Both the position numbers and the translations under genes were made by a program. From IMG/VR virus record IMGVR_UViG_3300036546_000271: a stretch of 64,000 nucleotides of DNA. One strand, written 5' to 3'. Positions 3,009-59,437 of the stretch are shown piece by piece (positions within the stretch are counted from its first letter, which is position 1; each line of letters starts with the position of its first letter). Below the pieces are notes generated by a model that saw only the letters and a list, made by a program, of their open reading frames with translations, did not search any database and was not told the DNA's origin. The DNA comes from an uncultured virus (IMG/VR IMGVR_UViG_3300036546_000271) (lineage: Duplodnaviria > Heunggongvirae > Uroviricota > Caudoviricetes).

Positions 3009-4070
3009 TTGTTCGAAGATAGAACCTATGAAAATATACTTCAAGAGTTTCTTGATATGGCACCTCCTGATATAGATACAAGACAAGGTAGTGTATATTA
3101 TGATGCTGTAGCTCCTGCAGCTTTTAAACTTGCTAAATTTTATGCTGATTTGCAAATGACCTTCGAGCTTGTATTTATAGATAGTACAGAAGGGGAATTC
3201 TTAACAGAAAAGGCAAAAGAGCATGGAGTTGAAAGACTGCCGGCAAAACCAGCTAAAAGACGGGTAACTTTTGAAGGAGTTATTCCAAACACCGGAGAGA
3301 GATTCTTTGCAGAGCAGCAATATTTTGTACTTAAAAACGATGATGAAATAGGACTATATGTAGAAGCTGAAGAACCAGGAGAAAGTGCTAACAATATTCC
3401 TATAGGTACAAAGTTAGTTCCTTTAAATAATATATTTGGACTTACCTCTTCTACTTTAGGAGAAGTAATAGAACCAGGAACAGAAGAAGAAAGTGACGAT
3501 GATTTAAAAAGAAGATTAAGAGAAAAAATAGCAGGTCCAGCTGAAAACGGAAACAAACAACACTATAAAACATGGTGCGAGGAAGTTGTTGGAGTCGGAA
3601 GGGCTAGAATATTTCCTCTTTGGGATGGGCCTAACACTGTCAAAGGTGTTCTGGTAGATACGCAAGGTTTGCCGGCTTCACAAACTGTAGTTGATTCAGT
3701 TCAGGAGTATGTTGATCCAGGAGCACAAGGCTTAGGAGAAGGAGTTGCTAATCTAGGTGCAAAATTTACAGCAGTAGCTGCAAATACATATAACATAGAT
3801 ATTTATTTTCAAGCTGTAGCAAAACAAGGAGCAACTCTCGATGATGTAAAAAATGAAGCTATTGAAGCTTTTACTGAATACTTCAAAGACATTACATTAA
3901 ATACTCCTGAAGGTGAAGACATGATTATAAGAGTATCGGCAATTGGAAATATAATCTATGAACTAGCTTCAGTGTTAGACTATAGCAATTTAACGATTAA
4001 TGGTGGCACTGCGAACATTCAAATAGATATTGAATCAGTTCCGGTGCTGGGGGTGGTGACTGTTGAATAA
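3009..4070 (+). CDS. Baseplate J-like (XkdT) protein
   Basis: GTEEESDDDLKRR and GNKQHYKTWCEEVVGV motifs. Confidence 0.9.
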   Translation: MFEDRTYENILQEFLDMAPPDIDTRQGSVYYDAVAPAAFKLAKFYADLQMTFELVFIDSTEGEFLTEKAKEHGVERLPAKPAKRRVTFEGVIPNTGERFFAEQQYFVLKNDDEIGLYVEAEEPGESANNIPIGTKLVPLNNIFGLTSSTLGEVIEPGTEEESDDDLKRRLREKIAGPAENGNKQHYKTWCEEVVGVGRARIFPLWDGPNTVKGVLVDTQGLPASQTVVDSVQEYVDPGAQGLGEGVANLGAKFTAVAANTYNIDIYFQAVAKQGATLDDVKNEAIEAFTEYFKDITLNTPEGEDMIIRVSAIGNIIYELASVLDYSNLTINGGTANIQIDIESVPVLGVVTVE

Positions 4071-4917
4071 CTATGATGAGATAAAAACATTTCTTCCTGA
4101 CTTTTATAATGACATTTTAGAAATGCAGTTGTATCTTCAGGCTCTTGGAGGCCAACTCGATAAAGCTGAAGAATCAAATATAAAAGTGCTTTTTAATAAT
4201 TTCATATATAGAGCTGATGAAGATGCAATCGAAAGACTAGAAAAATATTTGTATCTACCAATTGACAGAGAAAAGCCTCTAGAAGATAGAAGGCGTTTAG
4301 TAACTTCTTTCTTTGTTGGTTTCGGTAAAATGAGTGCTTCTAAAATAAAAGAAATTGTATATCAGTTTACAAATGCAATTCCAGATGTAAAGTTTGAAGA
4401 TAGCACCATATTTGTTGAAATTGAAAGAGGAGATACACAGTCTCTGTATTTAATCGATGTGGCCACTATCTTATCAAGAAGACTCCCGGCTCATCTTGAA
4501 TTTACTTTAAGTGTTAATATCACAGTGAATACAACTGTAGAAGTAAAATCTCATATTTATCCATTCAATTATAAACTTTGTGATGAGTTGATATGTGGTA
4601 CTTATCCAAGACCAGCATATTTAGGAGAAGTTGATAGAAATATAGTAAATGTATCAGCCAAGGAAGAAATCAATATATTTGATTACAGACTGTGTGGAAC
4701 TTACCCAATTAATACAACTATTGGTGATGTAGACATAGTATTGACGGAAATAAATGCCGACAGTAAAAACTACCCCTTTGACTATAAATTAGCCGGCACA
4801 AACCCAGATATAAGTACTTTGGGAGATATAAACAATATACAAGCAAGCACAGATGAAGCAACTAAAACAGTTGCTTTTTCTTATACCCTTTGTGGAACCA
4901 AAAGATGTGGTGAGTAA
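4063..4917 (+). CDS. XkdU/DUF2313-like tail protein with C-terminal Cys repeats
   Basis: Follows baseplate J; LEDRRR and LPAHL motifs; repeated F.Y.LCGT.P. Confidence 0.7.
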   Translation: MNNYDEIKTFLPDFYNDILEMQLYLQALGGQLDKAEESNIKVLFNNFIYRADEDAIERLEKYLYLPIDREKPLEDRRRLVTSFFVGFGKMSASKIKEIVYQFTNAIPDVKFEDSTIFVEIERGDTQSLYLIDVATILSRRLPAHLEFTLSVNITVNTTVEVKSHIYPFNYKLCDELICGTYPRPAYLGEVDRNIVNVSAKEEINIFDYRLCGTYPINTTIGDVDIVLTEINADSKNYPFDYKLAGTNPDISTLGDINNIQASTDEATKTVAFSYTLCGTKRCGE

Positions 4918-4930
4918 GGAGGTGAAGTAA

Positions 4931-5239
4931 TTGGCTAACTTTTGGAATGAAAGCTTTCTTCAGAAAATGCGTGACAAATGGCTAAAGTCAATTGCTTATG
5001 CTGAATATGTCATGAATGATGTAACCTATAGAGCTGACATACAGCAGAAAAAAATAGTAGGAGACACTATTGAAGTATATGTTGTCATTGATCATTCAGT
5101 TCAGGGAACAAATACTATCACAAAAATAAGACTGTATGACACAGATGGAACAATAGCAGGTGAAAGAACAGAAAATATTGTGAAAAGCAGCACTCAAGGT
5201 GTGCTGATTAAATTTGAATTCCCTTTGAAGGAGGTGTAG
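4931..5239 (+). CDS. Phage tail-associated protein
   Basis: Strong RBS; homologous to 53993-54292. Confidence 0.6.
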   Translation: MANFWNESFLQKMRDKWLKSIAYAEYVMNDVTYRADIQQKKIVGDTIEVYVVIDHSVQGTNTITKIRLYDTDGTIAGERTENIVKSSTQGVLIKFEFPLKEV

Positions 5240-5245
5240 CAATAA

Positions 5246-5692
5246 ATGAAACCATATAACAGAACAGTTTGGAAAGATCATGTTACAGACCCTGAAACAG
5301 GGCAGGTCATACAGGAAGGTACTCCAGAAAGTGCTACTAACTTCAACAATATAGAAACTGGTATATTTGCTAATGATTCATCTAGTTCAGTATTAATGCA
5401 GGAGGTAATGCAGCATAAAAGATTATTAGCTGACCTAGAGGGAGAAATGGGAGAAGTAACACTAACAAACAGTCAAGAGTATCCATTTAATAATTCAGAG
5501 CAAACTGTTTCCTTATCAAAGGCCAGAGATACTCTGAATTATAGGGTGGATGTTGAAATCGTGAGTGCTGTAGGCTTTCCTGGAAAAATTGAAGTATATG
5601 ACAAGCAGTTAAATGGTTTTAAAATCAAATTTACTGGCAGTGCATCTTCTGTCACTGTCAAATACATTGTTCAAGGAGGTATGTATCAATGA
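5246..5692 (+). CDS. Phage tail fibre-associated protein
   Basis: Homologous to 54293-54730 (PFNNS, DKQLNGFKI, VQGGMYQ). Confidence 0.65.
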   Translation: MKPYNRTVWKDHVTDPETGQVIQEGTPESATNFNNIETGIFANDSSSSVLMQEVMQHKRLLADLEGEMGEVTLTNSQEYPFNNSEQTVSLSKARDTLNYRVDVEIVSAVGFPGKIEVYDKQLNGFKIKFTGSASSVTVKYIVQGGMYQ

Positions 5693-6012
5693 TAGTCGTT
5701 GAAAAAAATGAAGGTACTAAAATTAATTATTCAGTTGAAGATACTAAATTAACATTAAGAGATGAGATGACTCTAGATTTAGAAAAATATGAAAGGGATT
5801 TTCCAGTGCATATTGATATATGCAAAAACAAGTTTGGAATGCTAACCTTTGAACTTAGCGAAAAGTATGTAGCTCAAATAGATATACCAGCTAGAGAATA
5901 TAATGAAGTTCAAAACGGAACTGATGAAGAAGGAAATCCGAAGATAGATAAAGTTCCGGTACCTTTCGATATGAATAAAGTAACACTAACATTATGGAGT
6001 TTGGAGGGATAA
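5689..6012 (+). CDS. Phage tail-associated protein upstream of the DGR target
   Basis: Homologous to 54895-55224 (EKN.G.KI.Y, IDIC.N, LTLW). Confidence 0.65.
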   Translation: MIVVEKNEGTKINYSVEDTKLTLRDEMTLDLEKYERDFPVHIDICKNKFGMLTFELSEKYVAQIDIPAREYNEVQNGTDEEGNPKIDKVPVPFDMNKVTLTLWSLEG

Positions 6013-6015
6013 TAA

Positions 6016-7071
6016 ATGACTAACTTTGATGATTTAAAACTATCAGTAGAAGCACTTTCGGGAGGAAAAAACACAGTATTATTTGATGATTTAGGCATGC
6101 CGAGCATTATGGTACCTATACCAAAGTTTAAGCTATCTGATGTAATAGATGGAGCTCCTCAAGAGACACATCCAGCATTCATTATCGATGGAGAAGAAAA
6201 AGATGTAATTTACATTTCTAAATATCAAAACATCGTAATGAATGACAGGGCATATTCACTACCTTATAAAGACCCTAAGGTTTATACAACTTTTGATCAA
6301 GCTGTTACTTATTGTAGGAACAAAGGACCAGGTTGGCATCTGATGACCAATGCAGAATGGGCAGCACTGGCTCTATGGTGTAAGAAAAACGGATTTATGC
6401 CAAGAGGAAATAACAGCTACGGCAAAGACCACAGTGCTACACACGAAAAAGGAGTACCAACGTATATCTATGACACCGATACAATCGCTAGAGTGGCCAC
6501 TGGTTCAGGGCCAGCTTCATGGGCTCACGATGGCACCAACGAAGGCATATTCGACCTAAACGGAAACGTATGGGAGTGGGTAGCTGGATTTAGACTTGCA
6601 GATGGAGAAATACAGGTGATTCCATACAATGAGGCTGCGAAAGATGATGCAAGCATGGCTTCTGACAGCACTCTATGGAAAGCTATCTTGCAAGATGGTT
6701 CTTTAGTTGCTCCTGGTACTGCAGATACTCTAAAAATTGATGGAGAAACTGCAACACCAAGTGGAATCAGAATCAATACAAGTGTAGTTAATCAAACAAC
6801 AGATGAAAATTATCTAAGCAAAACATTAGAAACCATAACAGCAGCTGACGGAGTAACTATACCAATGCTTTTAAAAGCTCTAGGTATTGCTCCTGTAGAC
6901 GCTAATCATGGAGGAGATAATGTGTGGGCTAGAAATAAAGGAGAAAGATTGCCGTTCCGTGGTGGCTACTGGATCGGCGGTTCCGATGCCGGGGTGTTTT
7001 CTCTGCACCTCAGCTACCCTCGTTCGGGCTCCAGTAGCAACATCGGCTTCCGTGCTGCTTACATTGGATAA
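6016..7071 (+). CDS. DGR target protein 1, Mtd-like with C-terminal C-type lectin/FGE-like variable domain (probable receptor-binding protein)
   Basis: WHLMTNAEW, DLNGNVWEW, RGG.W...GFR motifs; 3' end contains the VR. Confidence 0.92.
   Translation: MTNFDDLKLSVEALSGGKNTVLFDDLGMPSIMVPIPKFKLSDVIDGAPQETHPAFIIDGEEKDVIYISKYQNIVMNDRAYSLPYKDPKVYTTFDQAVTYCRNKGPGWHLMTNAEWAALALWCKKNGFMPRGNNSYGKDHSATHEKGVPTYIYDTDTIARVATGSGPASWAHDGTNEGIFDLNGNVWEWVAGFRLADGEIQVIPYNEAAKDDASMASDSTLWKAILQDGSLVAPGTADTLKIDGETATPSGIRINTSVVNQTTDENYLSKTLETITAADGVTIPMLLKALGIAPVDANHGGDNVWARNKGERLPFRGGYWIGGSDAGVFSLHLSYPRSGSSSNIGFRAAYIG
6949..7059 (+). repeat. DGR1 variable repeat (VR1), 111 bp
   Basis: Matches 7544-7654 apart from 11 substitutions, all opposite TR adenines. 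Confidence 0.97.
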
Positions 7072-7101
7072 TCTGTAATCTGAAAAACTGATAATCTGAA
7101 T

Positions 7102-7121
7102 AGGCTGACGATAGTCAGCCT
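7102..7121 (+). promoter_or_regulatory. DGR1 hairpin downstream of VR (AGGCTGAC-GATA-GTCAGCCT)
   Basis: Perfect 8-bp stem with a 4-nt loop; equivalent hairpin in DGR2. Confidence 0.85.
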
Positions 7122-7166
7122 TTAATATTTTTATGTAGTTAAATTTACAGCAAAAGAGGGTGCAAG

Positions 7167-7508
7167 ATGGCAACAGAAGAACTGAAAATATTGCAGAAAA
7201 CCTATGATATGATTCTTTATGCTAACATATGCCTGAAACAATTTCCAAAACATGAAAAACACGTACTTGCAGCAGACATTAGAAAATCTATGTATAAATT
7301 ACTTTCACTTATTATTGCAGCAAATAAAAAATACTATAAGAAAACAACTCTTCAAGAGATAGACATAGAACTTGATGTGTTAAGAACTTACATCCGATTA
7401 TCTATGGATCTAAAATACTTACCTATAAAGAAGTATGAGATATGGAGCAAAAAGCTCAATGAAATAGGTAAAATGCTAGGTGGCTGGATGAAATACGCTA
7501 AAAAATAA
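7167..7508 (+). CDS. avd: DGR accessory variability determinant
   Basis: 113-aa basic protein with FPKHEK and EIGKMLGGW motifs, between target and TR. Confidence 0.92.
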   Translation: MATEELKILQKTYDMILYANICLKQFPKHEKHVLAADIRKSMYKLLSLIIAANKKYYKKTTLQEIDIELDVLRTYIRLSMDLKYLPIKKYEIWSKKLNEIGKMLGGWMKYAKK

Positions 7509-7543
7509 TTTTGAATATATTACACAGGGAATGAGCCGTGTAA

Positions 7544-7654
7544 TTGCCGTTCCGTGGTGGCAACTGGAACAACGGTTCCAATGCCGGGGTGTTTTCTCTG
7601 AACCTCAACAACCCTCGTTCGAACTCCAGTAACAACATCGGCTTCCGTGCTGCT
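7544..7654 (+). ncRNA. DGR1 template repeat (TR1)
   Basis: AAC-rich copy of VR1 between avd and RT; 22 adenines. Confidence 0.95.
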
Positions 7655-7818
7655 CTACTCTCATTGTCAGAAGTTATAAGCTTAAGGGCTTATATCCAGT
7701 ACAGAGAGTGTAAAGGGGTTCATTTCCTTGCCTTATAGGCAAAAAACTTTATTACCATGGAAGCAGCTAGTAGCTTTTTAGTGAAGGATGCTACACATGG
7801 TATATTACTTAAGTAAAG

Positions 7819-8910
7819 GTGGCAGATATGAAAAGAATAAAGAATATCTATCCTGAAATATATGACTTTGAAAATCTTTATAAATCATATCTAGAAGCTA
7901 GAAAATCAAAAAGATTTAGAAGTGATGTATTAGAATTTGCTGCTAATCTAGAAGAAAATTTAATTGAGATACAAAATGAGCTTATATGGAAAACCTATGA
8001 GGTTGGAAGATATAGAGAGTTCTATGTATATGAACCGAAAAAACGGCTTATTATGGCTCTGCCTTTCAAAGATAGGATAGTTCAGTGGGCAGTATACAGA
8101 AAAATATTCCCTATATTCGATAAGCAGTTTATAAATGATTCATATGCTTGCAGAAAAGGCAAAGGAACACATAAAGCTGCAGATAGGCTCCAATATTGGC
8201 TTAAAAAAGTATCAAGAAAACCTCAAAAATGGCACTATCTTAAGCTAGATATATCAAAGTATTTTTATAGGATAGACCACAGTGTATTAATGGATATCCT
8301 CGAAAGAAAAATAGCTGACAAAGACCTACTTTGGCTACTAGATAAAATCATAAATAGTGAAGACATGAAATTTGGACTACCTTTGGGAGCAGATCCTGAT
8401 GAAGTATCTGATGATGATAGACTTTCTGATGTAGGTATTCCTATAGGAAATCTGACATCACAGATGTTTGCAAATCTCTATCTGAATGAGCTGGACCAGT
8501 ATTGTAAACATAAGTTAAGACTTAAATACTATATCCGGTACATGGATGATGTCATAATACTCCACTCTGACAAGAAATATTTACACGATGCAAAAGCAGA
8601 GATAGAGAGATTTTTAAATGAAAATCTTAAACTTCATCTAAATAATAAGACTGCTATTAGGCCAATAAATACCGGCATTGAATTCGTTGGCTTTAGGATA
8701 TGGCCAACCCATAGAAAGCTCAAAAAGAAAACAGCTCTTAAGATGAAAAAGAGAATTAAATATATCAAGAAAGCTTATGAAAGGGGTGATATAGACTTTG
8801 AAAAAGTAAATGGAACTATGCAGAGCTACTTTGGGATTATGAAACATTTTAATAGTTATAAGCTTAAAAACAAACTGCTAAGTGAGTTTGTTTTGATAAG
8901 AAAGCCATAA
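7819..8910 (+). CDS. DGR reverse transcriptase 1 (start may be ATG at 7828)
   Basis: LKLDISKYF, GIPIGNLTSQ and YIRYMDD motifs; no maturase/endonuclease extension. Confidence 0.95.
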   Translation: MADMKRIKNIYPEIYDFENLYKSYLEARKSKRFRSDVLEFAANLEENLIEIQNELIWKTYEVGRYREFYVYEPKKRLIMALPFKDRIVQWAVYRKIFPIFDKQFINDSYACRKGKGTHKAADRLQYWLKKVSRKPQKWHYLKLDISKYFYRIDHSVLMDILERKIADKDLLWLLDKIINSEDMKFGLPLGADPDEVSDDDRLSDVGIPIGNLTSQMFANLYLNELDQYCKHKLRLKYYIRYMDDVIILHSDKKYLHDAKAEIERFLNENLKLHLNNKTAIRPINTGIEFVGFRIWPTHRKLKKKTALKMKKRIKYIKKAYERGDIDFEKVNGTMQSYFGIMKHFNSYKLKNKLLSEFVLIRKP

Positions 8911-8923
8911 ACTACATGTATAT

Positions 8924-9466
8924 TTGACAGAAAGAAGGTGTATCATGGAACAATTTACACAATATATTGATAGAGCTGTAAGTGGAACTAAACCACTTTG
9001 GGGAACGGCAATAGCGACACTGTGTTATATAATGTTTCCTGAAAAAGCTTATCAGACAGCTGCGTTAGCAGTTGGAGGAGCTATATTACTAGATATCTTC
9101 ACTAAATACATTGCACTTTCATACCAAAGTCGTGGATTAAGAAATGCTATAAAACAACGAAAAATATTCAGCAAAACTTTGTGGGAAGGCACTAGAATCA
9201 AGCTAGTGTCTTATTTAGTTATAGCAATTCTTGCTGGACTTAGTTATAGAGTTACGATGCTTACACAAGTAAGTGTATTTTTGGCTACAGTGGTTTACTC
9301 AGTTATATTTCTTAGAGAAGCTCAGTCTATAATTGAAAATCTTATTGATGCAGGGGCAGATCTAAAGTGGCTCCTAATTTGGACAAAAAGAAAGCAAGAA
9401 CAGATACTAGAGAACGATATTAAAGAAAATGTATCGAATGGAAGTGATAATGTTGAAAAAATTTGA
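8924..9466 (+). CDS. Phage holin-family membrane protein
   Basis: Several hydrophobic segments, REAQSIIENL motif, upstream of endolysin. Confidence 0.7.
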   Translation: MTERRCIMEQFTQYIDRAVSGTKPLWGTAIATLCYIMFPEKAYQTAALAVGGAILLDIFTKYIALSYQSRGLRNAIKQRKIFSKTLWEGTRIKLVSYLVIAILAGLSYRVTMLTQVSVFLATVVYSVIFLREAQSIIENLIDAGADLKWLLIWTKRKQEQILENDIKENVSNGSDNVEKI

Positions 9467-10127
9467 GATTATTTCAGTTGATGATTTAATTAAAAGATTA
9501 GAGAATTACACATACAACCAATTGCACATTCATCACACATGGAAACCAGATCATTCTAATTTCAATGGCAACAATCATATCCAACTACAACAAGGTATGT
9601 ATAATTATCATACAAAACAACTAGGCTGGAGAGATATAGGCCAACATGTAACATTAATGCCAGATGGTACATTTGTCACAGGTAGAGATTTCTCGCAAAC
9701 ACCTGCAAGTATAAGAGGATGGAATGTAGGAGCTTTTGCAGTTGAAATGCTTGGGAATTTTGACAAGGATAGAGACAAGCTTAGAGGAAAACAGAAGGAA
9801 AGCATACTCAGACTATCAAAGTATTTTGGAGAGAGGTTTGGATACAACAGTATAAAGTTCCACAGAGAAGGTCCTGGAGTATTTAAAACGTGTCCAGGCT
9901 CATCAATAAATAAAGATGATTTTATAAAGGAGGTTAAATCAGTGGGTAAAGTTTTTACAGACGTAGATGATAATAGGTGGTCAGCTAGTTATATTGAAAA
10001 AGCGTACAAATTAGGGTTAATCAAAGGTAATGGAGATGGAACATTTAATCCAGAAGGACCATTGACCAGGGAGCAGGCAGCTGTATTAATGGTAAGGTTG
10101 TATGAATTAATTAAGGAGGGTGAATAA
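9429..10127 (+). CDS. Endolysin, amidase_2-type catalytic domain plus C-terminal SLH domain
   Basis: HIHHT, GWRDIGQH, KTCPG; FTDV...GLIKG.GDGTFNP...TREQAA SLH motif. Confidence 0.88.
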   Translation: MYRMEVIMLKKFEIISVDDLIKRLENYTYNQLHIHHTWKPDHSNFNGNNHIQLQQGMYNYHTKQLGWRDIGQHVTLMPDGTFVTGRDFSQTPASIRGWNVGAFAVEMLGNFDKDRDKLRGKQKESILRLSKYFGERFGYNSIKFHREGPGVFKTCPGSSINKDDFIKEVKSVGKVFTDVDDNRWSASYIEKAYKLGLIKGNGDGTFNPEGPLTREQAAVLMVRLYELIKEGE

Positions 10128-10447
10128 TGAATAGTGAAGCTATTATCCAAATAGGAACAATAATTATTGCTCTTATCGGAGCTGCAATAACTTATGTTGT
10201 AGTACCTTATGTGAAGAGTAAAACAACTTCAGAACAGTACAAAATGATTGAGTTTTGGGTTCGTGTAGCAGTTCAAGCTGCAGAACAATTATTCAATCAA
10301 CCAGGAATGGGCGAGCAGAAGAAACAATATGTGCTTAATTTCCTATCAGATAAAGGAATTAAGATGACAATGAAGCAGTTAGATGCATTAATCGAAGCAG
10401 CTGTCCAGGAGCTAAACAAAGGAAAGCTTCTTTCTAGTTCGAATTAA
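10127..10447 (+). CDS. LL-H-type phage holin
   Basis: N-terminal TM segment, AVQAAEQ, G.QKK, IEAAV motifs; homologous to 59412-59750. Confidence 0.8.
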   Translation: MNSEAIIQIGTIIIALIGAAITYVVVPYVKSKTTSEQYKMIEFWVRVAVQAAEQLFNQPGMGEQKKQYVLNFLSDKGIKMTMKQLDALIEAAVQELNKGKLLSSSN

Positions 10448-52068: not shown

Positions 52069-53199
52069 ATGGAAAGAGAATTAAAAATGCCGGATTTTCT
52101 TCAAGAGGACGCTGATACCATCCATAATAGAATGCTAGAAAACGCACCCCTAGATATTAACCTTGTGGAAGGTGATTTTTTTTGGGATGCAACAAGACCT
52201 ACTGCAGAAGAAAAAGCAGAACTTCTACAGATAAAGCTTCAAAATATATTAAAACTTGCATTTCCTCAAACAAGTTACGGACAGTATCTAGATTTTTTAG
52301 GAGAATTTAAAGATGTATACAGGAAGCCTCCCACTAAGGCAACTGGATACATAAAAGTAACTGGTAGCATTGGAGCGTATATGCCAAAGGATACGATTAT
52401 ATATACAGAGTCGTATGACGGACCTTCTATAGGATTTGTAGTTTTAGAATCTACGGAAGTAGATGAAAATGGAGAGGCGATGGTTAAAGTTGAATGCACA
52501 GAACCAGGAGTGATTGGCAATGTAGCTTCAAATACAATTAAAATACCAGAAAAAGATATTCCTGGCATAAAAACAATAACTAATCCGGAGTCTTTAACAG
52601 GAGGAACAGGAGAAGAAGACGACGAGGCTTTTAGAGAAAGAGTATTAGCTGCCTATGATGAAAGTCTAAGTGGATCAGATAGCGATTATAAAAGATGGGC
52701 CTTACAGGTACCAGGAGTCGGGCAAGCATACGTCATTTCAGAATGGGAAGGTTTTGGAACTGGAACAACTAAGCTTCTTATAATGGACTCTAATGGGCAA
52801 CCTGCGAATGAAACATTGATATCACAGGTGCAAGAATATATAGCTCCACTGGTAGAAAAAAATAGAGGAGGCTTAGCTCCTGTAAATGCAAATGTAACTG
52901 TATCAGCACCAGATGTAATTATTATAAATATATCTGTAAGTCTAATCTTTAAAGATGGTTACGAAAATTCTGCAGTCATTGAAAACTTGAAAGAAAATAT
53001 AAAAGAATACCTTAGCACAATTGAAATAACAACTGATGATGAGAATGCTGAATATGTCTATAAAGAAGCTATAGGACATGTCATATTGAGTACACCAGGT
53101 GTAAAAATATATAGCAACTTAACAATTAACGGAGGAACAGATCCAATATTAGTGCCTTTAGGAGAAGTTCCAGCTTTAGGAGAGGTGTCTATATTATGA
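52069..53199 (+). CDS. Baseplate J-like protein
   Basis: GGTGEEDDEAFRER, DYKRWALQVPGV. Confidence 0.9.
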   Translation: MERELKMPDFLQEDADTIHNRMLENAPLDINLVEGDFFWDATRPTAEEKAELLQIKLQNILKLAFPQTSYGQYLDFLGEFKDVYRKPPTKATGYIKVTGSIGAYMPKDTIIYTESYDGPSIGFVVLESTEVDENGEAMVKVECTEPGVIGNVASNTIKIPEKDIPGIKTITNPESLTGGTGEEDDEAFRERVLAAYDESLSGSDSDYKRWALQVPGVGQAYVISEWEGFGTGTTKLLIMDSNGQPANETLISQVQEYIAPLVEKNRGGLAPVNANVTVSAPDVIIINISVSLIFKDGYENSAVIENLKENIKEYLSTIEITTDDENAEYVYKEAIGHVILSTPGVKIYSNLTINGGTDPILVPLGEVPALGEVSIL

Positions 53200-53993
53200 T
53201 AACTTCTTCTAAAGGAAAACAAATGTTTCAAGCAGTAAGTCCTATATATTATCAATCGATTATAATGCAATCTATTTTTCAAGTCATAGGAACAGAATGG
53301 GAAGATATAGATAAAATAGTAGACGAGATATTATTGCAGTTATTCCCACAAACAGCTACTTGGGGTTTAAGGTATTGGGAGGAACTTTTAAATATACCAG
53401 CAAACGAATCAATTCCCATAGAAAAAAGAAGATCCTTAGTAATGACTAGAATAAAACTCAGAGCACCAATGACACCAGCAAGAATATCAAGTGCAGTAAA
53501 ATCTTTAGCGGGTCAAATTGCAGATTTTGTAGAGGTAGTCGAAAACGTTGAACCTCATGTATTTAGAGTTGTTCTAGGAGCTAAAGAAAGCGGGATTGAT
53601 TACTTAAGCATTTATAGAGAGATAAAAAGAATAAAACCCTCTCATGAAAGCTTCTATTTAGGTAATAGCTACCTAAGATCCTTTAGTTTGAATGGAAAGT
53701 ATATACGTGGTTTTTCTAAAATTCAACATACAATAGGTACATTTGTATGCAGTAAAGATGATGTTGAATTTTTAGCCACAAAAGGATATAGAAGAGTTGA
53801 GGATATCACAATAGAGAAAAACAGAATATATGGAACATCGGATCCTTTGGTATGTAGCGAAAAATTAATACACACAACCGAAGGTTTTTTAGATAAAAGC
53901 ATAATGGACCAGCAAGTGAGTAGCTCAACTGGAACCTCAAACCCTTTGGTTTGTAGTAAGAACCTCAAGTATACAAGAATAGAGGTGGTGTAA
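53196..53993 (+). CDS. XkdU/DUF2313-like tail protein
   Basis: QLFPQTATWGL..WE, IKPSH. Confidence 0.85.
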   Translation: MITSSKGKQMFQAVSPIYYQSIIMQSIFQVIGTEWEDIDKIVDEILLQLFPQTATWGLRYWEELLNIPANESIPIEKRRSLVMTRIKLRAPMTPARISSAVKSLAGQIADFVEVVENVEPHVFRVVLGAKESGIDYLSIYREIKRIKPSHESFYLGNSYLRSFSLNGKYIRGFSKIQHTIGTFVCSKDDVEFLATKGYRRVEDITIEKNRIYGTSDPLVCSEKLIHTTEGFLDKSIMDQQVSSSTGTSNPLVCSKNLKYTRIEVV

Positions 53994-55224
53994 TGAATAA
54001 TTATGGAATTCAAAGAATTTTAGACAGTATAGAGCTGATGGTTAAAGAGGCAAGGGTAACATTTTCTGATGGCAACAAAGAAATGATCCCTATAAGGAAA
54101 GTAGAAAGAGAAAATGAAACTATAAGAATATTTTTCTACATCCCTGCAGAGCAAACCGCTCAAACTATAACAAGAGTAGAGCTCATAGATAATAGAGGTT
54201 CGGTTATAGATGAACAGACTGATGTAGTTGAAAAAGCTAAAAGGCAAGGTTTTATGACTGCTTTTGAATACACGTATAGCGAGGTGAATTAGATGTACGA
54301 TATTATCAAGTGGTATGATGAAGTAAAAGACCAAAACGGAAATCTTTTACAAGAAGGAACTTTGCATGATGAAGTCAATATGAACCGTATGGAAGAAGGG
54401 ATATACCAAGCGAATCTATTGGCTTCAATGTTAGTTCAAAAAGAGCTTCAACAGAAAAAAGTATTAGCAGCATTGGAAGGAGAGACGGGTCAAATTACTT
54501 TGACTAATAGCGAAACATTTCCTTTCAATAATTCCGTTCAGACTATAGCAATGGAAAAGCAGAGAGATGCTTTGGACTATAGAGTTTCTGTTGAAGTTAT
54601 ATCTAGTGATGGTGTTGTTGGAGATATCATAATCTCTGATAAGCAGCTAAATGGTTTTAAAATCGAATACACAGGTAGTGCTACAAGTGCAACTATTAAA
54701 TATTACGTCCAAGGAGGCATGTATCAATAATGGCTAATGTTATACTTAAAAGCGATGATAGAAAACAAAGAGAAAGACAAATTTTAAAGGATTTTGGATA
54801 TAGTTCTAATACAGCTAGTAAAGAAGCTAGAGAAAAAGCTGAATATATAGCAGAAAAAACTATGGAAATCAAGAAAAGTTGGGGGTGTAAGTAGATGAAT
54901 GTGATTGAAAAAAATGCAGGTCCTAAGATTGAATATAAACAAGAAAGTGAAAGCATAATTTCATTTAGAGATGAATTATTTTTAAATCTTGAAAAATGCG
55001 AAAGAGACTATCCTGTGCAAATTGATATATGTGAAAATGAAGATGGAATACTAACTACAGGCATTTCAAAGAAATATATAGCTCAAATAGAAATACCAGC
55101 ACGAAAATACAGTGAAATTCCAATACAAGAAACAGGAACTGAAATCGAGGGAGAATCAATAAAGCTCGAGCCAGTTCCTTTTTCAATGGACAATATAATA
55201 TTAACATTATGGGCGATAAAATAA
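53993..55224 (+). other. Four small tail-fibre-associated genes (53993-54292, 54293-54730, 54730-54894, 54895-55224)
   Basis: Three are homologous to 4931-6012; 54730-54894 (54 aa, MANVILKSDDRK...) is translationally coupled and absent from element 1. Confidence 0.7.
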
Positions 55225-55236
55225 GGAGGTTATAAC

Positions 55237-56301
55237 ATGAATTATGATATGCTAAAACTTGCGGTAGAAGGACTTAGTGGAGGAAAAAACACTATTTTGT
55301 TAGATGATAGAGGTATGCCAAGCTTTATGGTTAGATTTCCTAAATTAAAAGATTCTGACCTGGTAGATGGTGCTACGCAGGATACTCACGATGCATTTAT
55401 AGTCGATGGTGTAGAAAAAGACTTTTTCTATGTTTCTAAATACCAAAACATAGTAAAAGATGATAGAGCATACAGTTTGCCACTAATGGATCCAAGGGTA
55501 TATGTGAACTTTGACCAGGCTAAAAACTATTCCGAAAACAAAGGATTAGGATGGCATCTTATGACAAATGCCGAGAGAGCAGCTATAGCTTTATGGTGTA
55601 AAAAGAACGGTTTTATGCCTCGTGGGAATAACGATTATGGCAAAGACGTATCTGCCCCTCATGAAAAAGGTATTGTTACTTATAAATATACAAGTGGTGA
55701 GACTGAATTAGATGGTAGAGTTGCTACTGGTTCTGGCCCTGCAAGTTGGGCACATGACGGTACAACAGATGGAATCTATGATTTAAACGGGAACGTCTGG
55801 GAATGGTTTGGAGGCTACAGACTTGTAGATGGGGAAATTCAAATCATCCCATATAATAATGCTGCTATGCAAGTAAATCAAGATCCAGATAGCACTCTTT
55901 GGAAAGCGATTATGCCAGACGGTTCATTAGTTGAACCAGGAACAGCTGGAACTCTTAAATACGACGCAACTAATGCAGATGGCAGTGGTGGAATTCAAAT
56001 TGGAACAGATGTTGTTAATCAAACAACTGGAGACCCATATGCAGCTCAAACATTAGAAACTATAGCTGCAAAATCTGGAATTACAATACCAAATATCATG
56101 AAAACTTTAGCTTTAGCTCCTATAGACTCTGACCACGGAGGAGATTACCTGTATATGAGAAACCTTGGAGAGAGACTTCCGTCTTTCGGTGGCTGCTGGC
56201 ACAGCGGTTCTTGGGCTGGTGTGTTTGCGGTGTACCTCCCCCACCCTCGCTCGTACTCCCTCAGCAGTATCGGTTTCCGCTCCGCTTATATTGAACTGTA
56301 A
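55237..56301 (+). CDS. DGR target protein 2, Mtd-like with C-terminal variable lectin-type domain
   Basis: Homologous to 6016-7071 throughout; contains VR2. Confidence 0.92.
   Translation: MNYDMLKLAVEGLSGGKNTILLDDRGMPSFMVRFPKLKDSDLVDGATQDTHDAFIVDGVEKDFFYVSKYQNIVKDDRAYSLPLMDPRVYVNFDQAKNYSENKGLGWHLMTNAERAAIALWCKKNGFMPRGNNDYGKDVSAPHEKGIVTYKYTSGETELDGRVATGSGPASWAHDGTTDGIYDLNGNVWEWFGGYRLVDGEIQIIPYNNAAMQVNQDPDSTLWKAIMPDGSLVEPGTAGTLKYDATNADGSGGIQIGTDVVNQTTGDPYAAQTLETIAAKSGITIPNIMKTLALAPIDSDHGGDYLYMRNLGERLPSFGGCWHSGSWAGVFAVYLPHPRSYSLSSIGFRSAYIEL
56176..56286 (+). repeat. DGR2 variable repeat (VR2), 111 bp
   Basis: Matches 56744-56854 apart from 14 substitutions, all opposite TR adenines. Confidence 0.97.
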
Positions 56302-56331
56302 TCTGAAATCTGTAAAACTGATAATCTGAGT

Positions 56332-56351
56332 AGTCCTGCGATAGCAGGGCT
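56332..56351 (+). promoter_or_regulatory. DGR2 hairpin (AGTCCTGC-GATA-GCAGGGCT)
   Basis: 8-bp stem with one G:T pair; same GATA loop and position as DGR1. Confidence 0.8.
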
Positions 56352-56361
56352 TTATATAGCA

Positions 56362-56718
56362 TTGGAGGTTGCAATATTGAAGCAAGATTTCAAGATACTT
56401 CAAAAAACTTATGACATGATACTTTATGGCAATATATGTTTAAAGCAGTTTCCGAAATTTGAAAAACACGTAATGTCAGCGGATATACGAAGTTCCATGT
56501 ACAAATTATTAAACCTTATAGTTAGAGCTAATAAAAAATATTACAAGAAAACTACTTTACAAGATATAGATATAGAACTAGAAGTTTTAAGAACATATAT
56601 AAGACTTGCAGCGGATCCAAAACTAAAATATTTACCGCTTAAGAAATATGAAAATTGGAGCAAAATGCTTAACGAGATTGGTAGAATGTTAGGAGGGTGG
56701 ATGAAATCCACTAAATAG
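56362..56718 (+). CDS. avd: DGR accessory variability determinant
   Basis: Homologous to 7167-7508; EIGRMLGGW. Confidence 0.92.
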   Translation: MEVAILKQDFKILQKTYDMILYGNICLKQFPKFEKHVMSADIRSSMYKLLNLIVRANKKYYKKTTLQDIDIELEVLRTYIRLAADPKLKYLPLKKYENWSKMLNEIGRMLGGWMKSTK

Positions 56719-56743
56719 GTATAATATGGGGAATGGATCGTAA

Positions 56744-56854
56744 CTTCCGTATTTCGGTGGCAACTGGAACAACGGTTCTAGGGCTGGTGTGTTTGCGGTG
56801 AACCTCAACAACCCTCGCTCGAACTCCAACAACAGTATCGGTTTCCGCTCCGCT
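56744..56854 (+). ncRNA. DGR2 template repeat (TR2)
   Basis: AAC-rich copy of VR2; 22 adenines. Confidence 0.95.
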
Positions 56855-57030
56855 CATTTTCATAGTCAGAAGGCAAGCGGCTCAAGGGCACTTGTTCAGC
56901 ACATGAAAATAAGGGGTCCATTTCCCTGCCGATAAGGCAAAAAATTATATTGCTATGAAAACAGTTAGTAGGTTAATTCTCGAAAGGTGTTACACATAGC
57001 ATTTAAATACAACATGGAGATGACGAGAAA

Positions 57031-58170
57031 ATGAAAAGATATGGCAATATATATAAACAAATATATGATTTCGAAAATTTGTACCAGGCCTATTTAGAGG
57101 CAAGAAAAAACAAAAGGTACAGAGCTGACGTTTTAGAATTTAGTGCAAACTTAGAAGAAAACCTCATAGAAATTCAAAATGAATTGATATGGAAAGAATA
57201 TGAGGTTGGAAGATATAGAGAGTTCTATGTATATGAACCTAAAAAAAGGCTTATAATGGCACTCCCTTTTAAGGACAGAGTGGTTCAATGGGCGATTTAT
57301 AGAGTATTAAACCCAATATTTAATAAAACCTTTATAGAGCATAGTTATGCATGCAGAAAATGGAAAGGAACTCACAAAGCAGCAGATAAATTGCAGGATT
57401 GGCTTAGGAAACTAGATAGAAAACCAATTAAACACTACTATCTCAAAATGGATATATCAAAATATTTCTACAGAGTAGATCATGACGTTGCATTAAATAT
57501 CCTTGAAAGAAAAATAAAAGATAAAGACGTGATTTGGCTGCTAGAAAAGATTATCAAGAGCAAACAAAAGCCATTTGGATTGCCATTGGGTATGGAGCCT
57601 GGAGATTGCCCTAAGCATATGAGGTTGTATAACAAAGGAATGCCTATAGGCAATCTAACAAGCCAGCTCCTGGCAAACATATATCTCAATGAACTGGATC
57701 AATTCTGTAAACACGACCTAAGGATTAAGTATTACATCAGATATATGGATGACTTTATTATTTTACACCATGATAAGAAATATTTACACAGGTTAAAAGT
57801 GGAAATAGAAAGCTTTTTAAACAGCCAACTTAAACTGCATCTCAATAAAAAGACTTGCATTAGGCCTATAAGCTTAGGCATAGAGTTTGTAGGTTTTAAA
57901 ATATGGCCAACCCATAGGAAATTAAAGAAAAAATCGGCTATCAAAATGAAAAGAAGACTTAGGTATTTAAAGAAGGCATATGCCAGAGGGGAGGTTGCTT
58001 TAGATGAAATAAATGCAAGCATACAAAGTTATTTAGGGATACTGCAACATTGTAATAGTTATTCTCTCAAAAAGTCTATTTTTAAAGACTTGATTTTTAC
58101 AAAGGACAAAATAAAAGAGTTCGCTAATAAAGGTATAGAGCAAGAAAACTCCAGTGGCTCACAAACATAA
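57031..58170 (+). CDS. DGR reverse transcriptase 2
   Basis: LKMDISKYF, GMPIGNLTSQ, YIRYMDD. Confidence 0.95.
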   Translation: MKRYGNIYKQIYDFENLYQAYLEARKNKRYRADVLEFSANLEENLIEIQNELIWKEYEVGRYREFYVYEPKKRLIMALPFKDRVVQWAIYRVLNPIFNKTFIEHSYACRKWKGTHKAADKLQDWLRKLDRKPIKHYYLKMDISKYFYRVDHDVALNILERKIKDKDVIWLLEKIIKSKQKPFGLPLGMEPGDCPKHMRLYNKGMPIGNLTSQLLANIYLNELDQFCKHDLRIKYYIRYMDDFIILHHDKKYLHRLKVEIESFLNSQLKLHLNKKTCIRPISLGIEFVGFKIWPTHRKLKKKSAIKMKRRLRYLKKAYARGEVALDEINASIQSYLGILQHCNSYSLKKSIFKDLIFTKDKIKEFANKGIEQENSSGSQT

Positions 58171-58184
58171 ATTGGAGGTGTATT

Positions 58185-58439
58185 ATGGACCAGACGCTTT
58201 GTAACGAAAAACATAAAAGAATTGAAGAAAGATTGGAAATACAAGATAGAAGATTAAACAATCACTCGGAAAGACTTGATAAAATAGAACAGCTTCAATC
58301 AAGGACAGAGGCTCAAATTTCTAGTCTCTGCGACCAAATCAAGTCACTTGTTACAACAATGAGGTGGTTTATAGGATTGTTAGTAGGAGCTTTTGTAAGC
58401 TTCTTTTTTTATGCAGTTCAACAAAGTCTTTTTAAATAG
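58185..58439 (+). CDS. XhlA-like lysis-associated membrane protein
   Basis: Coiled coil (RLNNHSERLDKIEQ) plus C-terminal TM segment, before endolysin. Confidence 0.75.
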   Translation: MDQTLCNEKHKRIEERLEIQDRRLNNHSERLDKIEQLQSRTEAQISSLCDQIKSLVTTMRWFIGLLVGAFVSFFFYAVQQSLFK

Positions 58440-58445
58440 GAGGTT

Positions 58446-59162: not shown

Positions 59163-59170
59163 AGGGGTGA

Positions 59171-59437
59171 TTGCAAATGAAAAAGAAAATGGAGTTTTCT
59201 AAAATCTTAGCGATAATTATAACCATACTGTTTGTAGTAAGTATAATTTTTGTATTTGCAGTGTGGTATTTTGAAAACAGGCTTGGAACAGAAATTCTTT
59301 CTTATGTTGCAATGCCTTTTGGCGTTGTTATAAGCGGGTATTTTGCAAAGGCGGGCTTTGAGAACCATAGAAAAATCAATAATGCAGGCAAAGAAATCGT
59401 AAAGTTTAATAATGAGGAGGAATATTATAATGGATAA
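59171..59437 (+). CDS. Small two-TM membrane protein (holin-like)
   Basis: EFSK.I, two hydrophobic helices, Y..KA..EN. Confidence 0.6.
   Translation: MQMKKKMEFSKILAIIITILFVVSIIFVFAVWYFENRLGTEILSYVAMPFGVVISGYFAKAGFENHRKINNAGKEIVKFNNEEEYYNG

Follow-up and report, generated by a model that had tools for sequence, protein, structure and literature searches.

The window, i.e. the whole stretch of 64,000 nucleotides that was analysed (uncultured virus, IMG/VR record IMGVR_UViG_3300036546_000271), contains two complete diversity-generating retroelements (DGRs), each with target gene, Avd, template repeat (TR) and reverse transcriptase (RT), located in two related prophage tail modules. The genes and repeats are as follows, VR being the variable repeat.

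6016..7071, + strand: DGR1 target gene with an FGE-sulfatase / C-type-lectin-like fold, phrog_2889 (Pfam PF03781, PHROGs)
6948-7059, + strand: VR1 in the DGR1 target gene (direct repeat with TR1)
7102..7121, + strand: hairpin downstream of VR1 (8-bp stem, GAUA loop, then a U-rich run)
7167..7508, + strand: avd1, accessory variability determinant (Pfam PF22296 bAvd, E = 3.7e-36)
7543..7654, + strand: TR1 (11 mismatches to VR1, 11/11 at TR adenines)
7819..8910, + strand: DGR1 reverse transcriptase, RT1 (Pfam RVT_1)
55237..56301, + strand: DGR2 target gene, a CLec-type target by Pfam (PF03781)
about 56175-56286, + strand: VR2 in the DGR2 target gene, 568 nt upstream of TR2
56362..56718, + strand: avd2 (Pfam PF22296; 79% identity to Avd1)
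56743..56854, + strand: TR2 (14 mismatches to VR2, 14/14 at TR adenines)
57031..58170, + strand: DGR2 reverse transcriptase, RT2 (Pfam RVT_1)

Both loci thus have the make-up of Avd-type DGRs: an RT beside the TR, TR/VR differences at adenines only, and an Avd together with a target of C-type-lectin/FGE fold. The VR ends 12 nt before the stop codon of the target gene, i.e. at the 3' end of the target, and the TRs lie 165-175 nt upstream of their RT genes. RT1 and RT2 each match Pfam RVT_1 with E = 1.1e-23 and are 70% identical to each other, and their alignment contains the motif IGNLTSQ, which we take to be typical of DGR RTs. This alignment starts at residue 4; the RT1 reading frame opens at GTG 7819, and ATG 7828, behind AAGGUGG (7816-7822), is the likely start. 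The hairpin at 7102..7121 may, judged from its sequence, be either a DGR target-site hairpin or a terminator; its counterpart in DGR2 (56332-56351) has an identical loop and compensatory changes in the stem. An open reading frame of 64 aa (7544-7738), which overlaps TR1 and the spacer, was regarded as spurious because conservation there follows the pattern of a paired RNA.

A preliminary description of the window, made by comparing the two DGRs, had proposed that the RNA around each TR folds into five stems, (a) to (e), and all five were found in both DGRs at the positions given there. They are listed here together with the segments that connect them.

7526..7537, + strand: DGR1 stem (a), 5' strand, AGGGAAUGAGCC; putative upstream strand of a Stop duplex (pairing, covariation)
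7654..7663, + strand: DGR1 helix (b), putative template-side strand; U7654 pairs with A7714 in the family register (covariation)
7666..7702, + strand: DGR1 inner hairpin, composed of b2 (2 bp, 7666-7667 / 7701-7702) and stem (c) (RT-14 alignment, covariation, RNAalifold)
7704..7714, + strand: DGR1 helix (b), putative primer-side strand, ending in a conserved AAA (covariation)
7715..7716, + strand: DGR1 GG linker between the primer-side strand and the putative Stop duplex (G7715 in 60/62, G7716 in 61/62 sequences)
7717..7728, + strand: DGR1 stem (a), 3' strand, GGUUCAUUUCCU (pairing, covariation, RNAalifold)
7729..7746, + strand: DGR1 stem-loop (d), 7729-7741, followed by an A-run (RT-14 alignment, pairing counts)
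7742..7752, + strand: DGR1 single-stranded A/U-rich linker (unpaired in the RT-14 consensus and in MFE folds)
7753..7802, + strand: DGR1 long interrupted stem-loop (e) (RT-14 alignment, covariation)
56728..56739, + strand: DGR2 stem (a), 5' strand, GGGGAAUGGAUC (pairing)
56854..56912, + strand: DGR2 helix (b), 56854-63 / 56903-12, enclosing stem-loop (c) (9/10 paired)
56913-56914, + strand: DGR2 GG linker (sequence)
56915..56926, + strand: DGR2 stem (a), 3' strand, GGUCCAUUUCCC (pairing)
56927..57001, + strand: DGR2 stem-loop (d), 56927-56939, A-run to 56944, single-stranded linker and stem-loop (e), 56951-57001 (RT-14 alignment, MFE fold, sequence)

As a check, the preliminary description had named an alignment of homologous avd-RT intergenic regions. 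We aligned 62 non-redundant regions (<95% identity) with MAFFT without structure input, which gave an alignment (A1) of 531 columns. This alignment was analysed by counting paired cells, by shuffled controls and controls in which pairing partners were slid, and by a G-test/APC ranking of all 56,616 column pairs. In the complete structure of 48 pairs, 84.6% of the cells are paired, compared with 65.7% after shuffling (0/500 reach the observed value, in a control that ignores phylogeny) and 41-53% when partners are slid by 1-3 columns. In the structure-blind ranking, stem pairs fill ranks 1-29. Covariation is strong and present in all proposed helices. These are thus real structures whose pairing is maintained by selection. 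Single-sequence MFE folds of both DGRs each contain (a), (b), (c), (d) and (e); however, the folding z-scores are modest (DGR1, z = -2.32, with 4/200 shuffles folding as well; DGR2, z = -1.40, 16/200). Since this thermodynamic signal is weak, the case rests on covariation.

Stem (a), described beforehand as a 12-bp long-range helix closing the TR, forms 12/12 standard pairs in each DGR, with positions 1 and 9 changing from A-U to G-C between the two. Its 5' strand begins 18 nt past the avd1 stop and lies 5 nt ahead of TR1; in DGR2 it follows the avd2 stop codon by 9 nt, and two relatives (L005 and L068) have it within avd. Among the 62 sequences, 94.8% of 733 cells pair, compared with 77.7% in the shuffled controls (0/500 reach the observed value) and 41-63% with slid partners. 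Both sides change in 10/12 pairs, and 144 cells carry two-sided changes where 40.8 are expected. Six of the 12 pairs stand within the top 28 of the structure-blind ranking (ranks 8, 9, 11, 12, 16 and 28), and RNAalifold recovers all 12 de novo. Three pairs are nearly invariant, namely pair 2 (G-C in 58/62), pair 3 (G-C in 62/62) and pair 4 (G.U in 57/62). A VR was found for 57/62 relatives. TR/VR homology ends within -2 to +5 nt of the U that pairs with the conserved A of helix (b) in 56/57 relatives. The homology sets in -1 to 11 nt beyond the 5' strand of stem (a) in 48/57, and 18-27 nt beyond it in 8/57, which carry an insert.

For helix (b), pairing at the positions proposed earlier stands in both DGRs, but in DGR1 the proposed register is 2 nt off that of the family. 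There, ACUCUC (7657-7662) and GAGAGU (7704-7709) are 6/6 paired, or 7/7 with U7656.G7710; in DGR2, AUUUUCAU (56856-56863) pairs with AUGAAAAU (56903-56910), which coincides with the family register. The latter extends to U7654-A7714 and includes the pairs at covariation ranks 1 and 4. In DGR1 it has 3 non-pairs in 10, the register shifted by 2 nt pairing 7/7, and both can form because of CU/AG repeats. Applied to the whole family, the proposed register pairs in 14-39 of about 60 sequences; the family register from the all-pairs ranking was therefore used instead. Likewise, a naive contiguous 15-bp version of stem (e) fitted the structure-blind alignment poorly and was replaced by the family register. 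In the 62 sequences, helix (b), helices 2-3 of the structure, is 75-78% paired, with one position unpaired in 46/62. Its conserved A pairs with U in 57/62 and forms a standard pair in 62/62. The nucleotides at this end of the helix are strongly conserved as well: C7653 in 60/62, U7654 in 58/62, A7713 in 61/62 and A7714 in 57/62 relatives.

The remaining stem-loops lie inside and downstream of these helices. In DGR1, stem (c) pairs 7673-7681 with 7688-7696 around the loop UUAAGG; its pairs stand at covariation ranks 2, 3, 7, 26 and 29, and those of b2 at 23 and 65. Stem-loop (d) (helix 6) is 79% paired, and the adenosines behind it are nearly invariant (A7743 in 58/62, A7744 in 61/62). Stem-loop (e), helices 7-9, is 82-96% paired, with ranks 17, 38 and 43 for its outer and 5 and 13 for its inner part.

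Most of this fold is not new. Stems (b) to (e) are the helices of the Rfam family RT-14 (RF02921), to whose consensus both copies align over the full model (1-144) above the gathering score of 48.1, with 92.2 bits (7653-7800) and 64.4 bits (56853-56999); stems (c), (d) and (e) of the preliminary description are thereby borne out in both DGRs. The RT-14 model covers the RNA only from the 3' end of the TR onwards and thus lacks the 5' strand of stem (a). The 3' strand of this long-range duplex corresponds to model positions about 66-83, which are annotated as a conserved single strand. Duplexes closing the TR have also been predicted already: in the available part of a preprint by Handa et al. 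(10.1101/2023.10.23.563531), which describes the cryo-EM structure of the RNP with the DGR RNA of Bordetella phage BPP-1, cPRT Stop duplexes are predicted for 207/278 Avd-bearing DGRs, with Bacillota examples in the legend of Fig. 5c. These 207 DGRs, listed in Fig. S18/Table S3 of the preprint, may already include the RNA class described here. As far as that part of the preprint goes, the Stop duplex was observed by cryo-EM in BPP-1 and, for other DGRs, was predicted only by single-sequence folding (10.1101/2023.10.23.563531). Our literature search found no paper naming both RT-14 and diversity-generating and, within the portions of the sources it covered, no covariation analysis of the TR-closing helix. 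In the main text of Weinberg et al. 2017 (PMC5737381), as far as available, RT-10 alone is assigned to a DGR, and about the other RT-associated RNAs the text only speculates.

The BPP-1 RNA provides the closest comparison. From 5' to 3', both RNAs have an upstream strand, the TR, a stem-loop, a primer strand (putative in the window) ending in A, a 2-nt linker, the 3' strand of an 11-12-bp duplex, a short stem-loop, adenosines, a single strand, a long interrupted stem-loop and the RT gene. In BPP-1, avd369-379 AGGGCAGGCUG pairs with Sp59-70 CGGUUCUGUCCU, followed by the stem-loop GCUUCGGC and GAA; the 3' strand is preceded by the primer strand ...GGUCA and the linker GC (G57 C58). In DGR1, the corresponding strands are AGGGAAUGAGCC / GGUUCAUUUCCU, with ...GUAAA and the linker GG in front of the 3' strand and a stem-loop and AAAAAA behind it. 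The first four duplex pairs are identical (A-U, G-C, G-C, G.U), pairs 2-4 being at the positions of the BPP-1 G:C receptors for A-minor adenosines. In both RNAs only a few nucleotides separate the duplex from the TR start, and the priming A of BPP-1 (Sp A56) is paired to U, as is its proposed analogue A7714 in the family register. There are also differences: the 5' strand lies inside avd in BPP-1 but after the avd stop in both DGRs of the window, the BPP-1 duplex has a bulged U63, and the BPP-1 loop is UNCG whereas that of stem (c) is of the UAAG type. Moreover, TR/VR homology runs 16 nt past the priming site in BPP-1 (TR118-134) but ends at the predicted priming site in the window. Phage_DGR (RF03022, formerly RT-10), the Rfam family of the BPP-1 spacer with a gathering score of 50 bits, matches BPP-1 itself with 104.7 bits and has no match with E up to 1 in 7400-7900 or 56600-57100; the case for homology to BPP-1 is therefore built on shared architecture and short motifs. 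According to the available part of the preprint, the parts of the BPP-1 RNP that match elements of the window (order, linker, conserved A and post-hairpin adenosines) are required for cDNA synthesis (10.1101/2023.10.23.563531).

We consider it probable, at roughly 0.85, that the avd-to-RT transcript of each DGR is the scaffold RNA with which RT and Avd produce adenine-mutagenised cDNA, most likely in the manner of BPP-1. The five elements would then map one to one onto those of BPP-1: (a) onto the cPRT Stop duplex, (b) onto the template:primer duplex, (c) onto the Avd-binding stem-loop, (d) onto the Stop stem-loop and (e) onto the RT-binding stem-loop. In helix (b), A7714 (A56912 in DGR2) would be paired with U7654 (U56854), and these adenosines are the predicted priming nucleotides, whose 2'-OH would start cDNA on the next template base, C7653 (C56853). 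The RNA would thus prime itself in cis, from the 2'-OH of its own conserved A. Because helix (b) can form in either of two registers in DGR1, the priming nucleotide there is uncertain within A7712-A7714. By position and shape alone, stem-loop (c), inside (b), is proposed to bind Avd and stem-loop (e) to bind the RT; the linker 7742..7752, by position only, is the proposed equivalent of the 'Thumb Ring', which together with (e) would hold the RT. Past the GG linker, the 3' strand of stem (a) would reach across the whole TR to the 5' strand 3-5 nt upstream of it, and stem (a), stem-loop (d) and A7743/A7744 are proposed to form the 'Stop' element, with these two adenosines as the A-minor adenosines, docking into duplex pairs 2 and 3, which are invariant G-C. 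This element would set the geometry of the primer and halt the RT where the TR begins, with 3' ends of the cDNA expected opposite 7538-7542. If reverse transcription is confined precisely to the TR in this way, only the VR-homologous segment would be mutagenised.

The helices could instead be real RNA structures that serve gene expression, by affecting stability or processing of the avd-TR-RT transcript or by controlling translation of the RT, and stem-loop (e) does end 13 nt before the ribosome-binding site of the RT gene. It leaves this site and the start codon uncovered, however, and in most relatives stem (a) encloses the VR-homologous TR to within a few nucleotides, which would be pointless for an expression element. 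Together with the match to the BPP-1 RNP in element order, 2-nt linker, conserved A and post-hairpin adenosines, this makes a role in gene expression unlikely. A function of the complementarity in DNA, cDNA or the antisense strand, for example as a cruciform or single-stranded DNA hairpin in retrohoming or recombination, is less probable again. DGR target sites reportedly use DNA hairpins downstream of the VR, as Guo et al. are said to have described in 2011, and a hairpin of that kind is present at 7102-7121. Stem (a), however, contains 123 G.U but 8 A.C cells, and its pairing falls from 94.8% on the + strand to 79.1% on the complement, where the near-invariant G.U at pair 4 would become an A.C mismatch; the structure is thus that of the + strand RNA. 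Finally, it is scarcely credible that the covariation is an artefact of ancestry or alignment and the stems chance complementarity: the relatives do share ancestry, many of them coming from similar gut phage lineages, the shuffling does not correct for this and the z-scores are weak, but the alignment was built without structure, background column pairs evolved on the same tree and still leave the top 29 ranks to stem pairs, a slide of one column lowers the pairing of stem (a) to about 62%, its positions show up to 5-6 standard pair types, and stems (b) to (e) are already part of an independently curated Rfam model.

The scaffold RNA proposed here for RT and Avd also resembles retron msr/msd RNA in being a structured RNA beside its RT, and in retrons the 2'-OH of an internal nucleotide primes cDNA on the same RNA (PMC8867640, as far as available). 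However, retrons prime from a guanosine and lack a TR/VR pair, Avd and adenine mutagenesis, and the sequences of their helices are unrelated to those in the window.

How far the fold extends was assessed with other Rfam families and distant loci. When 19 relatives were compared with Rfam, 3 matched RT-14 alone and 1 matched RT-14 and RT-9, while 12 matched no family though they align to the same fold. The window lies below the gathering scores of both RT-9 and RT-17; RT-17 (RF03020), a separate model, reaches 21.8 and 20.2 bits over (d)-(e), compared with a gathering score of 40.4. In loci of RT-9 (RF03080; L034, L036, L042 and L045), the closing duplex is likewise AGGG.../...UCCU, with a hairpin and adenosines behind it, although their RTs are only 35-39% identical to RT1 and RT-9 is a separate covariance model. 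The preliminary description was thus right in assuming a conserved DGR RNA fold but too narrow in confining it to one Firmicutes class: BPP-1 and RT-9 loci share this architecture, including the first four pairs of the duplex that closes the TR. A strict scan of the sequence upstream of the RT for GGG...YCC duplexes, requiring a minimum of 10-11 of 12 pairs, gave hits in 5/20 distant loci (RT identity <45%; Saccharibacteria, Patescibacteria, Geobacter, Prevotellaceae and others, whose TRs may lie elsewhere) and 2 hits in 40 control scans. Convincing duplexes were present only in three loci of RT-9 type, which does not establish the strict duplex signature as universal. We see an even chance that RT-14, RT-9, Phage_DGR and perhaps RT-17, together with the unmatched Clostridia-phage variants that make up the majority, are one homologous RNA. 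Its invariant core, from Bordetella phage to Clostridia prophages, would consist of the priming A, a 2-nt G-rich linker, a TR-closing duplex beginning N-N, G-C, G-C, G.U, a hairpin and AA.

The significance of these results is modest, and the picture of how DGRs work is unchanged. RT-14, listed in Rfam only as an RT-associated sRNA, would gain a function as DGR scaffold RNA, and its conserved 'single-stranded' segment turns out to be one strand of a long-range helix that reaches across the TR. The analysis also predicts, in two gut-type prophage DGRs, which adenosine primes, which base is templated first and where the RT stops, and the bracketing duplex suggests a simple way to delimit TRs. 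For the Stop duplex, strong natural covariation is now supplied. In BPP-1, according to the available part of the preprint, compensatory restoration of the avd:Sp duplex failed to rescue cDNA synthesis (10.1101/2023.10.23.563531), so pairing alone may not be the whole function of the duplex. If the families are indeed one RNA, natural covariation would show that the pairing of the Stop duplex is itself selected, which the BPP-1 compensatory mutants did not demonstrate, and a model including the 5' strand would allow TR borders and the start of the cDNA to be read directly from sequence.

Two complete DGRs are present in the window, with the identical gene order target, avd, TR and RT:

Features of the two DGR cassettes
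6016-7071, DGR1 target gene, FGE-sulfatase / C-type-lectin-like (PF03781)
7167-7508, DGR1 avd (PF22296, bAvd)
7543-7654, DGR1 template repeat TR1 (VR1 at 6948-7059)
7819-8910, DGR1 RT (RVT_1)
55237-56301, DGR2 target gene
56362-56718, DGR2 avd
56743-56854, DGR2 template repeat TR2
57031-58170, DGR2 RT

TR1 differs from VR1 at 11 positions and TR2 from VR2 at 14, and each of these is an adenine in the TR. The two RTs are 70% identical, the two Avd proteins 79%. Both cassettes lie between baseplate/tail genes and holin/endolysin genes (PHROGs) and thus belong to two related prophage tail modules. These modules (3009-10447 and 52069-59437, about 49 kb apart) are syntenic, with baseplate phrog_6, tail phrog_521, phrog_7177, phrog_9010 and phrog_8734 on the tail side, followed by the target (phrog_2889), Avd, RT and holin/endolysin; this arrangement suggests two related prophages or one large duplication. 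Mechanical ORF calling lets RT1 begin at GTG 7819, a codon that overlaps a Shine-Dalgarno-like AAGGUGG (7816-7822); judging from the sequence, the ATG at 7828, which aligns with the start of RT2, is the more probable start. About 30-40 nt past the stop codon of each target gene there is an 8-bp hairpin (7102-7121 and 56332-56351) with the same GAUA loop, followed by a U-rich run. Three to four compensatory changes separate the stems (AGGCUGAC/GUCAGCCU in DGR1 vs AGUCCUGC/GCAGGGCU in DGR2), and the hairpins could be DGR target-site hairpins as in the Bordetella phage BPP-1 or plain intrinsic terminators.

The preliminary description had proposed that five stems around the TR, (a) to (e), form a conserved RNA fold in both DGRs. 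Stem (a) closes the TR, (b) lies at its 3' end and encloses (c), and (d) and (e) follow downstream. Every stem was found where it had been placed. Stem (a) consists of 12 standard pairs out of 12 both in DGR1 (AGGGAAUGAGCC 7526-7537 / GGUUCAUUUCCU 7717-7728) and in DGR2 (GGGGAAUGGAUC 56728-56739 / GGUCCAUUUCCC 56915-56926), and pairing is kept through two double-sided changes between the copies. All five stems occur in the minimum free energy folds of both 285-nt RNAs, with folding energies modestly better than those of shuffled sequences (z = -2.32 for DGR1, -1.40 for DGR2). Stems (b) to (e) are exactly the helices of the Rfam family RT-14 (RF02921), which matches at 7653-7800 with 92.2 bits and at 56853-56999 with 64.4 bits (gathering score 48.1), so that four of the five initial observations rediscover a curated family. 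Stem (a) is absent from the RT-14 model, which begins at the final TR bases and annotates the segment forming the 3' strand as conserved and unpaired. Sub-threshold matches to another family, RT-17 (7724-7842, 21.8 bits; 56922-57006, 20.2 bits; gathering score 40.4), cover stem-loop (e) and the CCUU-hairpin-AAAA core; these matches hint that RT-17 may be another DGR spacer family.

Relatives of RT1 were collected from species-representative genomes (56 loci) and IMG/VR (80 of 124), giving 136 loci. In 111 of these, an Avd match lay upstream of the RT, which itself began 300 nt or more into the locus. The gap between avd and RT measured 200-520 nt in 105 of the 111, and the six with other gaps (L002, L007, L037, L067, L069, L079) were excluded. 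Adding both copies from the window brought the set to 107 intergenic regions, 85 of them distinct, and clustering at 95% identity reduced these to 64. The two distant sequences L051 and L056 failed to align and were removed, and the remaining 62 were aligned with MAFFT L-INS-i, blind to structure. One IMG/VR contig of 4651 nt (L057) encodes an RT listed as 100% identical to RT1 (99.7% by tblastn, with the first query residue set to M), which begins 235 nt into the locus and leaves an upstream part too short for use.

Covariation was ranked by a G-test with APC correction over all 56,616 pairs of columns with good occupancy. Pairs of stem (a) rank 8, 9, 11, 12, 16 and 28, with two further pairs at 506 and 683; the other four vary too little, if at all, to covary. 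Stem (c) holds ranks 2, 3, 7, 26 and 29, a 2-bp helix b2 ranks 23 and 65, stem (d) ranks 49, 52 and 71, and stem (e) ranks 17, 38 and 43 (outer part) and 5 and 13 (inner part). The remaining high-ranking pairs are adjacent columns within the TR, where the signal stems from coding or dinucleotide effects. Helix (b) takes ranks 1 and 4, but in a family register that differs from the one first drawn for DGR1. The complete structure of 48 pairs is formed in 84.6% of 2898 cells of alignment A1 (62 sequences, 531 columns), compared to 65.7% after shuffling (0 of 500 shuffles reach the observed value) and 41-53% when the partner strand is slid. For stem (a) alone the figures are 94.8% of 733 cells, 77.7% (0/500) and 41-63%. 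Double-sided changes occur in 10 of its 12 pairs (reached by 8 of 500 shuffles) and in 144 cells, where 40.8 are expected. Unguided RNAalifold on A1 recovered all 12 stem (a) pairs as well as stem (c). Stem (a) is strand-specific: since it contains 123 G.U but 8 A.C cells, its pairing would drop from 94.8% to 79.1% if the complement were the folded strand. This is a real structure, formed by RNA of the + strand.

Handa et al. (preprint, 10.1101/2023.10.23.563531) describe the BPP-1 particle of RT, Avd and RNA as seen by cryo-EM; in it, an avd:Sp duplex between avd and the spacer (avd369-379 / Sp59-70, “cPRT Stop”) closes the TR. This duplex is directly followed by a short stem-loop (Sp71-78) and by A80/A81, which make A-minor contacts to G:C pairs at the adjoining duplex end. 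Two nucleotides upstream of the Stop duplex lies the template:primer duplex (TR117-129 / Sp47-56), which ends in A56, the nucleotide that primes cDNA synthesis on TR G117, and which encloses the Avd-binding stem-loop Sp3-33; downstream come the “Thumb Ring”, which is single-stranded, and the RT-binding stem-loop, which is long and interrupted (same preprint). The BPP-1 record reads AGGGCAGGCUG in the upstream strand and ...UAGGUGGUCA GC CGGUUCUGUCCU GCUUCGGC GAA... in the spacer, the window AGGGAAUGAGCC upstream and ...GAGAGUGUAAA GG GGUUCAUUUCCU UGCCUUAUAGGCA AAAAA... in the spacer. Element order, spacing and the first four duplex pairs (A-U, G-C, G-C, G.U) are common to both. However, the Rfam family of the BPP-1 spacer does not match the window significantly, the window's 5' strand follows the avd stop codon (in the relatives L005 and L068 it lies inside avd), and its TR/VR homology stops at the predicted priming site, whereas that of BPP-1 continues 16 nt beyond.

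Several of these positions are conserved among the 62 sequences. Stem (a) pair 2 is G-C in 58, pair 3 G-C in all 62, and pair 4 G.U in 57. Of the AAGG preceding the duplex, A7713 is kept in 61, A7714 in 57, G7715 in 60 and G7716 in 61; of the adenosines after hairpin (d), A7743 in 58 and A7744 in 61. The pair A7714-U7654 is U-A in 57, C-G in 4 and U-G in 1, and the template bases before U7654 are C7653 (60/62) and an invariant G7652. If the RNA is read as BPP-1-like, the VR-homologous TR should sit between the two elements, and this is borne out. Of the 62 relatives, 57 have a VR that could be identified (none was found in L016, L034, L036, L068 and L120), with mismatches solely at TR adenines in 45. 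Measured from the U that pairs with the conserved A, the end of the homology lies at -2 to +5 nt in 56 of 57; in the exception, L073, an indel interrupts the segment. It starts -1 to 11 nt past the 5' strand of stem (a) in 48, 18-27 nt past it in eight that have an insert there, and 45 nt past it in L013, whose segment is truncated. One lineage (L001, L008, L058, L059, L064, L065, L071; A1 columns 22-46) has an 18-27-nt AUAGAGGAC-like insert between the Stop-duplex 5' strand and the TR, and much larger (d) and (e) domains. Oscillospiraceae/Faecalibacterium-type loci (L017, L018, L021, L023 and similar; A1 columns 171-200) carry an additional hairpin between the template strand and stem-loop (c) and a far shorter stem-loop (e) capped by GAAA, and match no Rfam family at gathering score.

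From these observed features (helices, covariation, conserved unpaired bases and TR bracketing), a mechanism can be proposed by analogy with BPP-1. The 2'-OH of A7714 (A56912 in DGR2) would prime cDNA synthesis on C7653 (C56853), stem-loop (c) would bind Avd, stems (a) and (d) with the adenosines would halt the RT at the TR's 5' edge and fix the geometry of priming, and 7742-7752 with stem-loop (e) would hold the RT. Helix (b) of DGR1 can adopt two registers, that of the family (7 of 10 pairs, up to U7654-A7714) or one shifted by 2 nt (7 of 7), which is that of the preliminary description and of Rfam; by the same analogy, the priming nucleotide of DGR1 could be any of A7712-A7714. One helix (b) position of the family register is unpaired in 46 of 62 sequences and may be the counterpart of non-standard pairs in BPP-1.

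RNAs RT-1 to RT-19 were found near RT genes by Weinberg et al. (2017, PMC5737381), who attributed RT-10 to the DGR of BPP-1 and speculated on a DGR role of other RT-n families. The Handa preprint reports putative Stop duplexes, from single-sequence MxFold2 predictions, in 207 of 278 Avd-bearing DGRs and mentions a Bacillota example in the legend of Fig. 5c (10.1101/2023.10.23.563531). This kind of RNA is therefore already known. Within the literature searched, three points appear to be unpublished: that RT-14 is this DGR scaffold, that its conserved segment annotated as “unpaired” forms one strand of a helix across the TR, and that this helix covaries extensively in nature. An Rfam scan of 19 relatives gave RT-14 at gathering score in four (one of them also with RT-9), RT-9 in four, and no family in 12, though all of these align to the common fold; Rfam families thus cover only fragments of one broader RNA class. 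In a strict motif scan of 20 distant DGR loci of other phyla, the signature was convincing only in RT-9-type loci. The relative L009 also contains a type-P5 twister ribozyme match (RF02684, 5998-6058, - strand, 50.9 bits, gathering score 37.6), ~3.5 kb downstream of its DGR RT. The initial observation is confirmed, and its interpretation as a conserved DGR RNA fold is supported by the covariation in 62 aligned avd-RT intergenic regions and by an architecture that parallels BPP-1. The RNA described here belongs to a known kind and is now better delimited.
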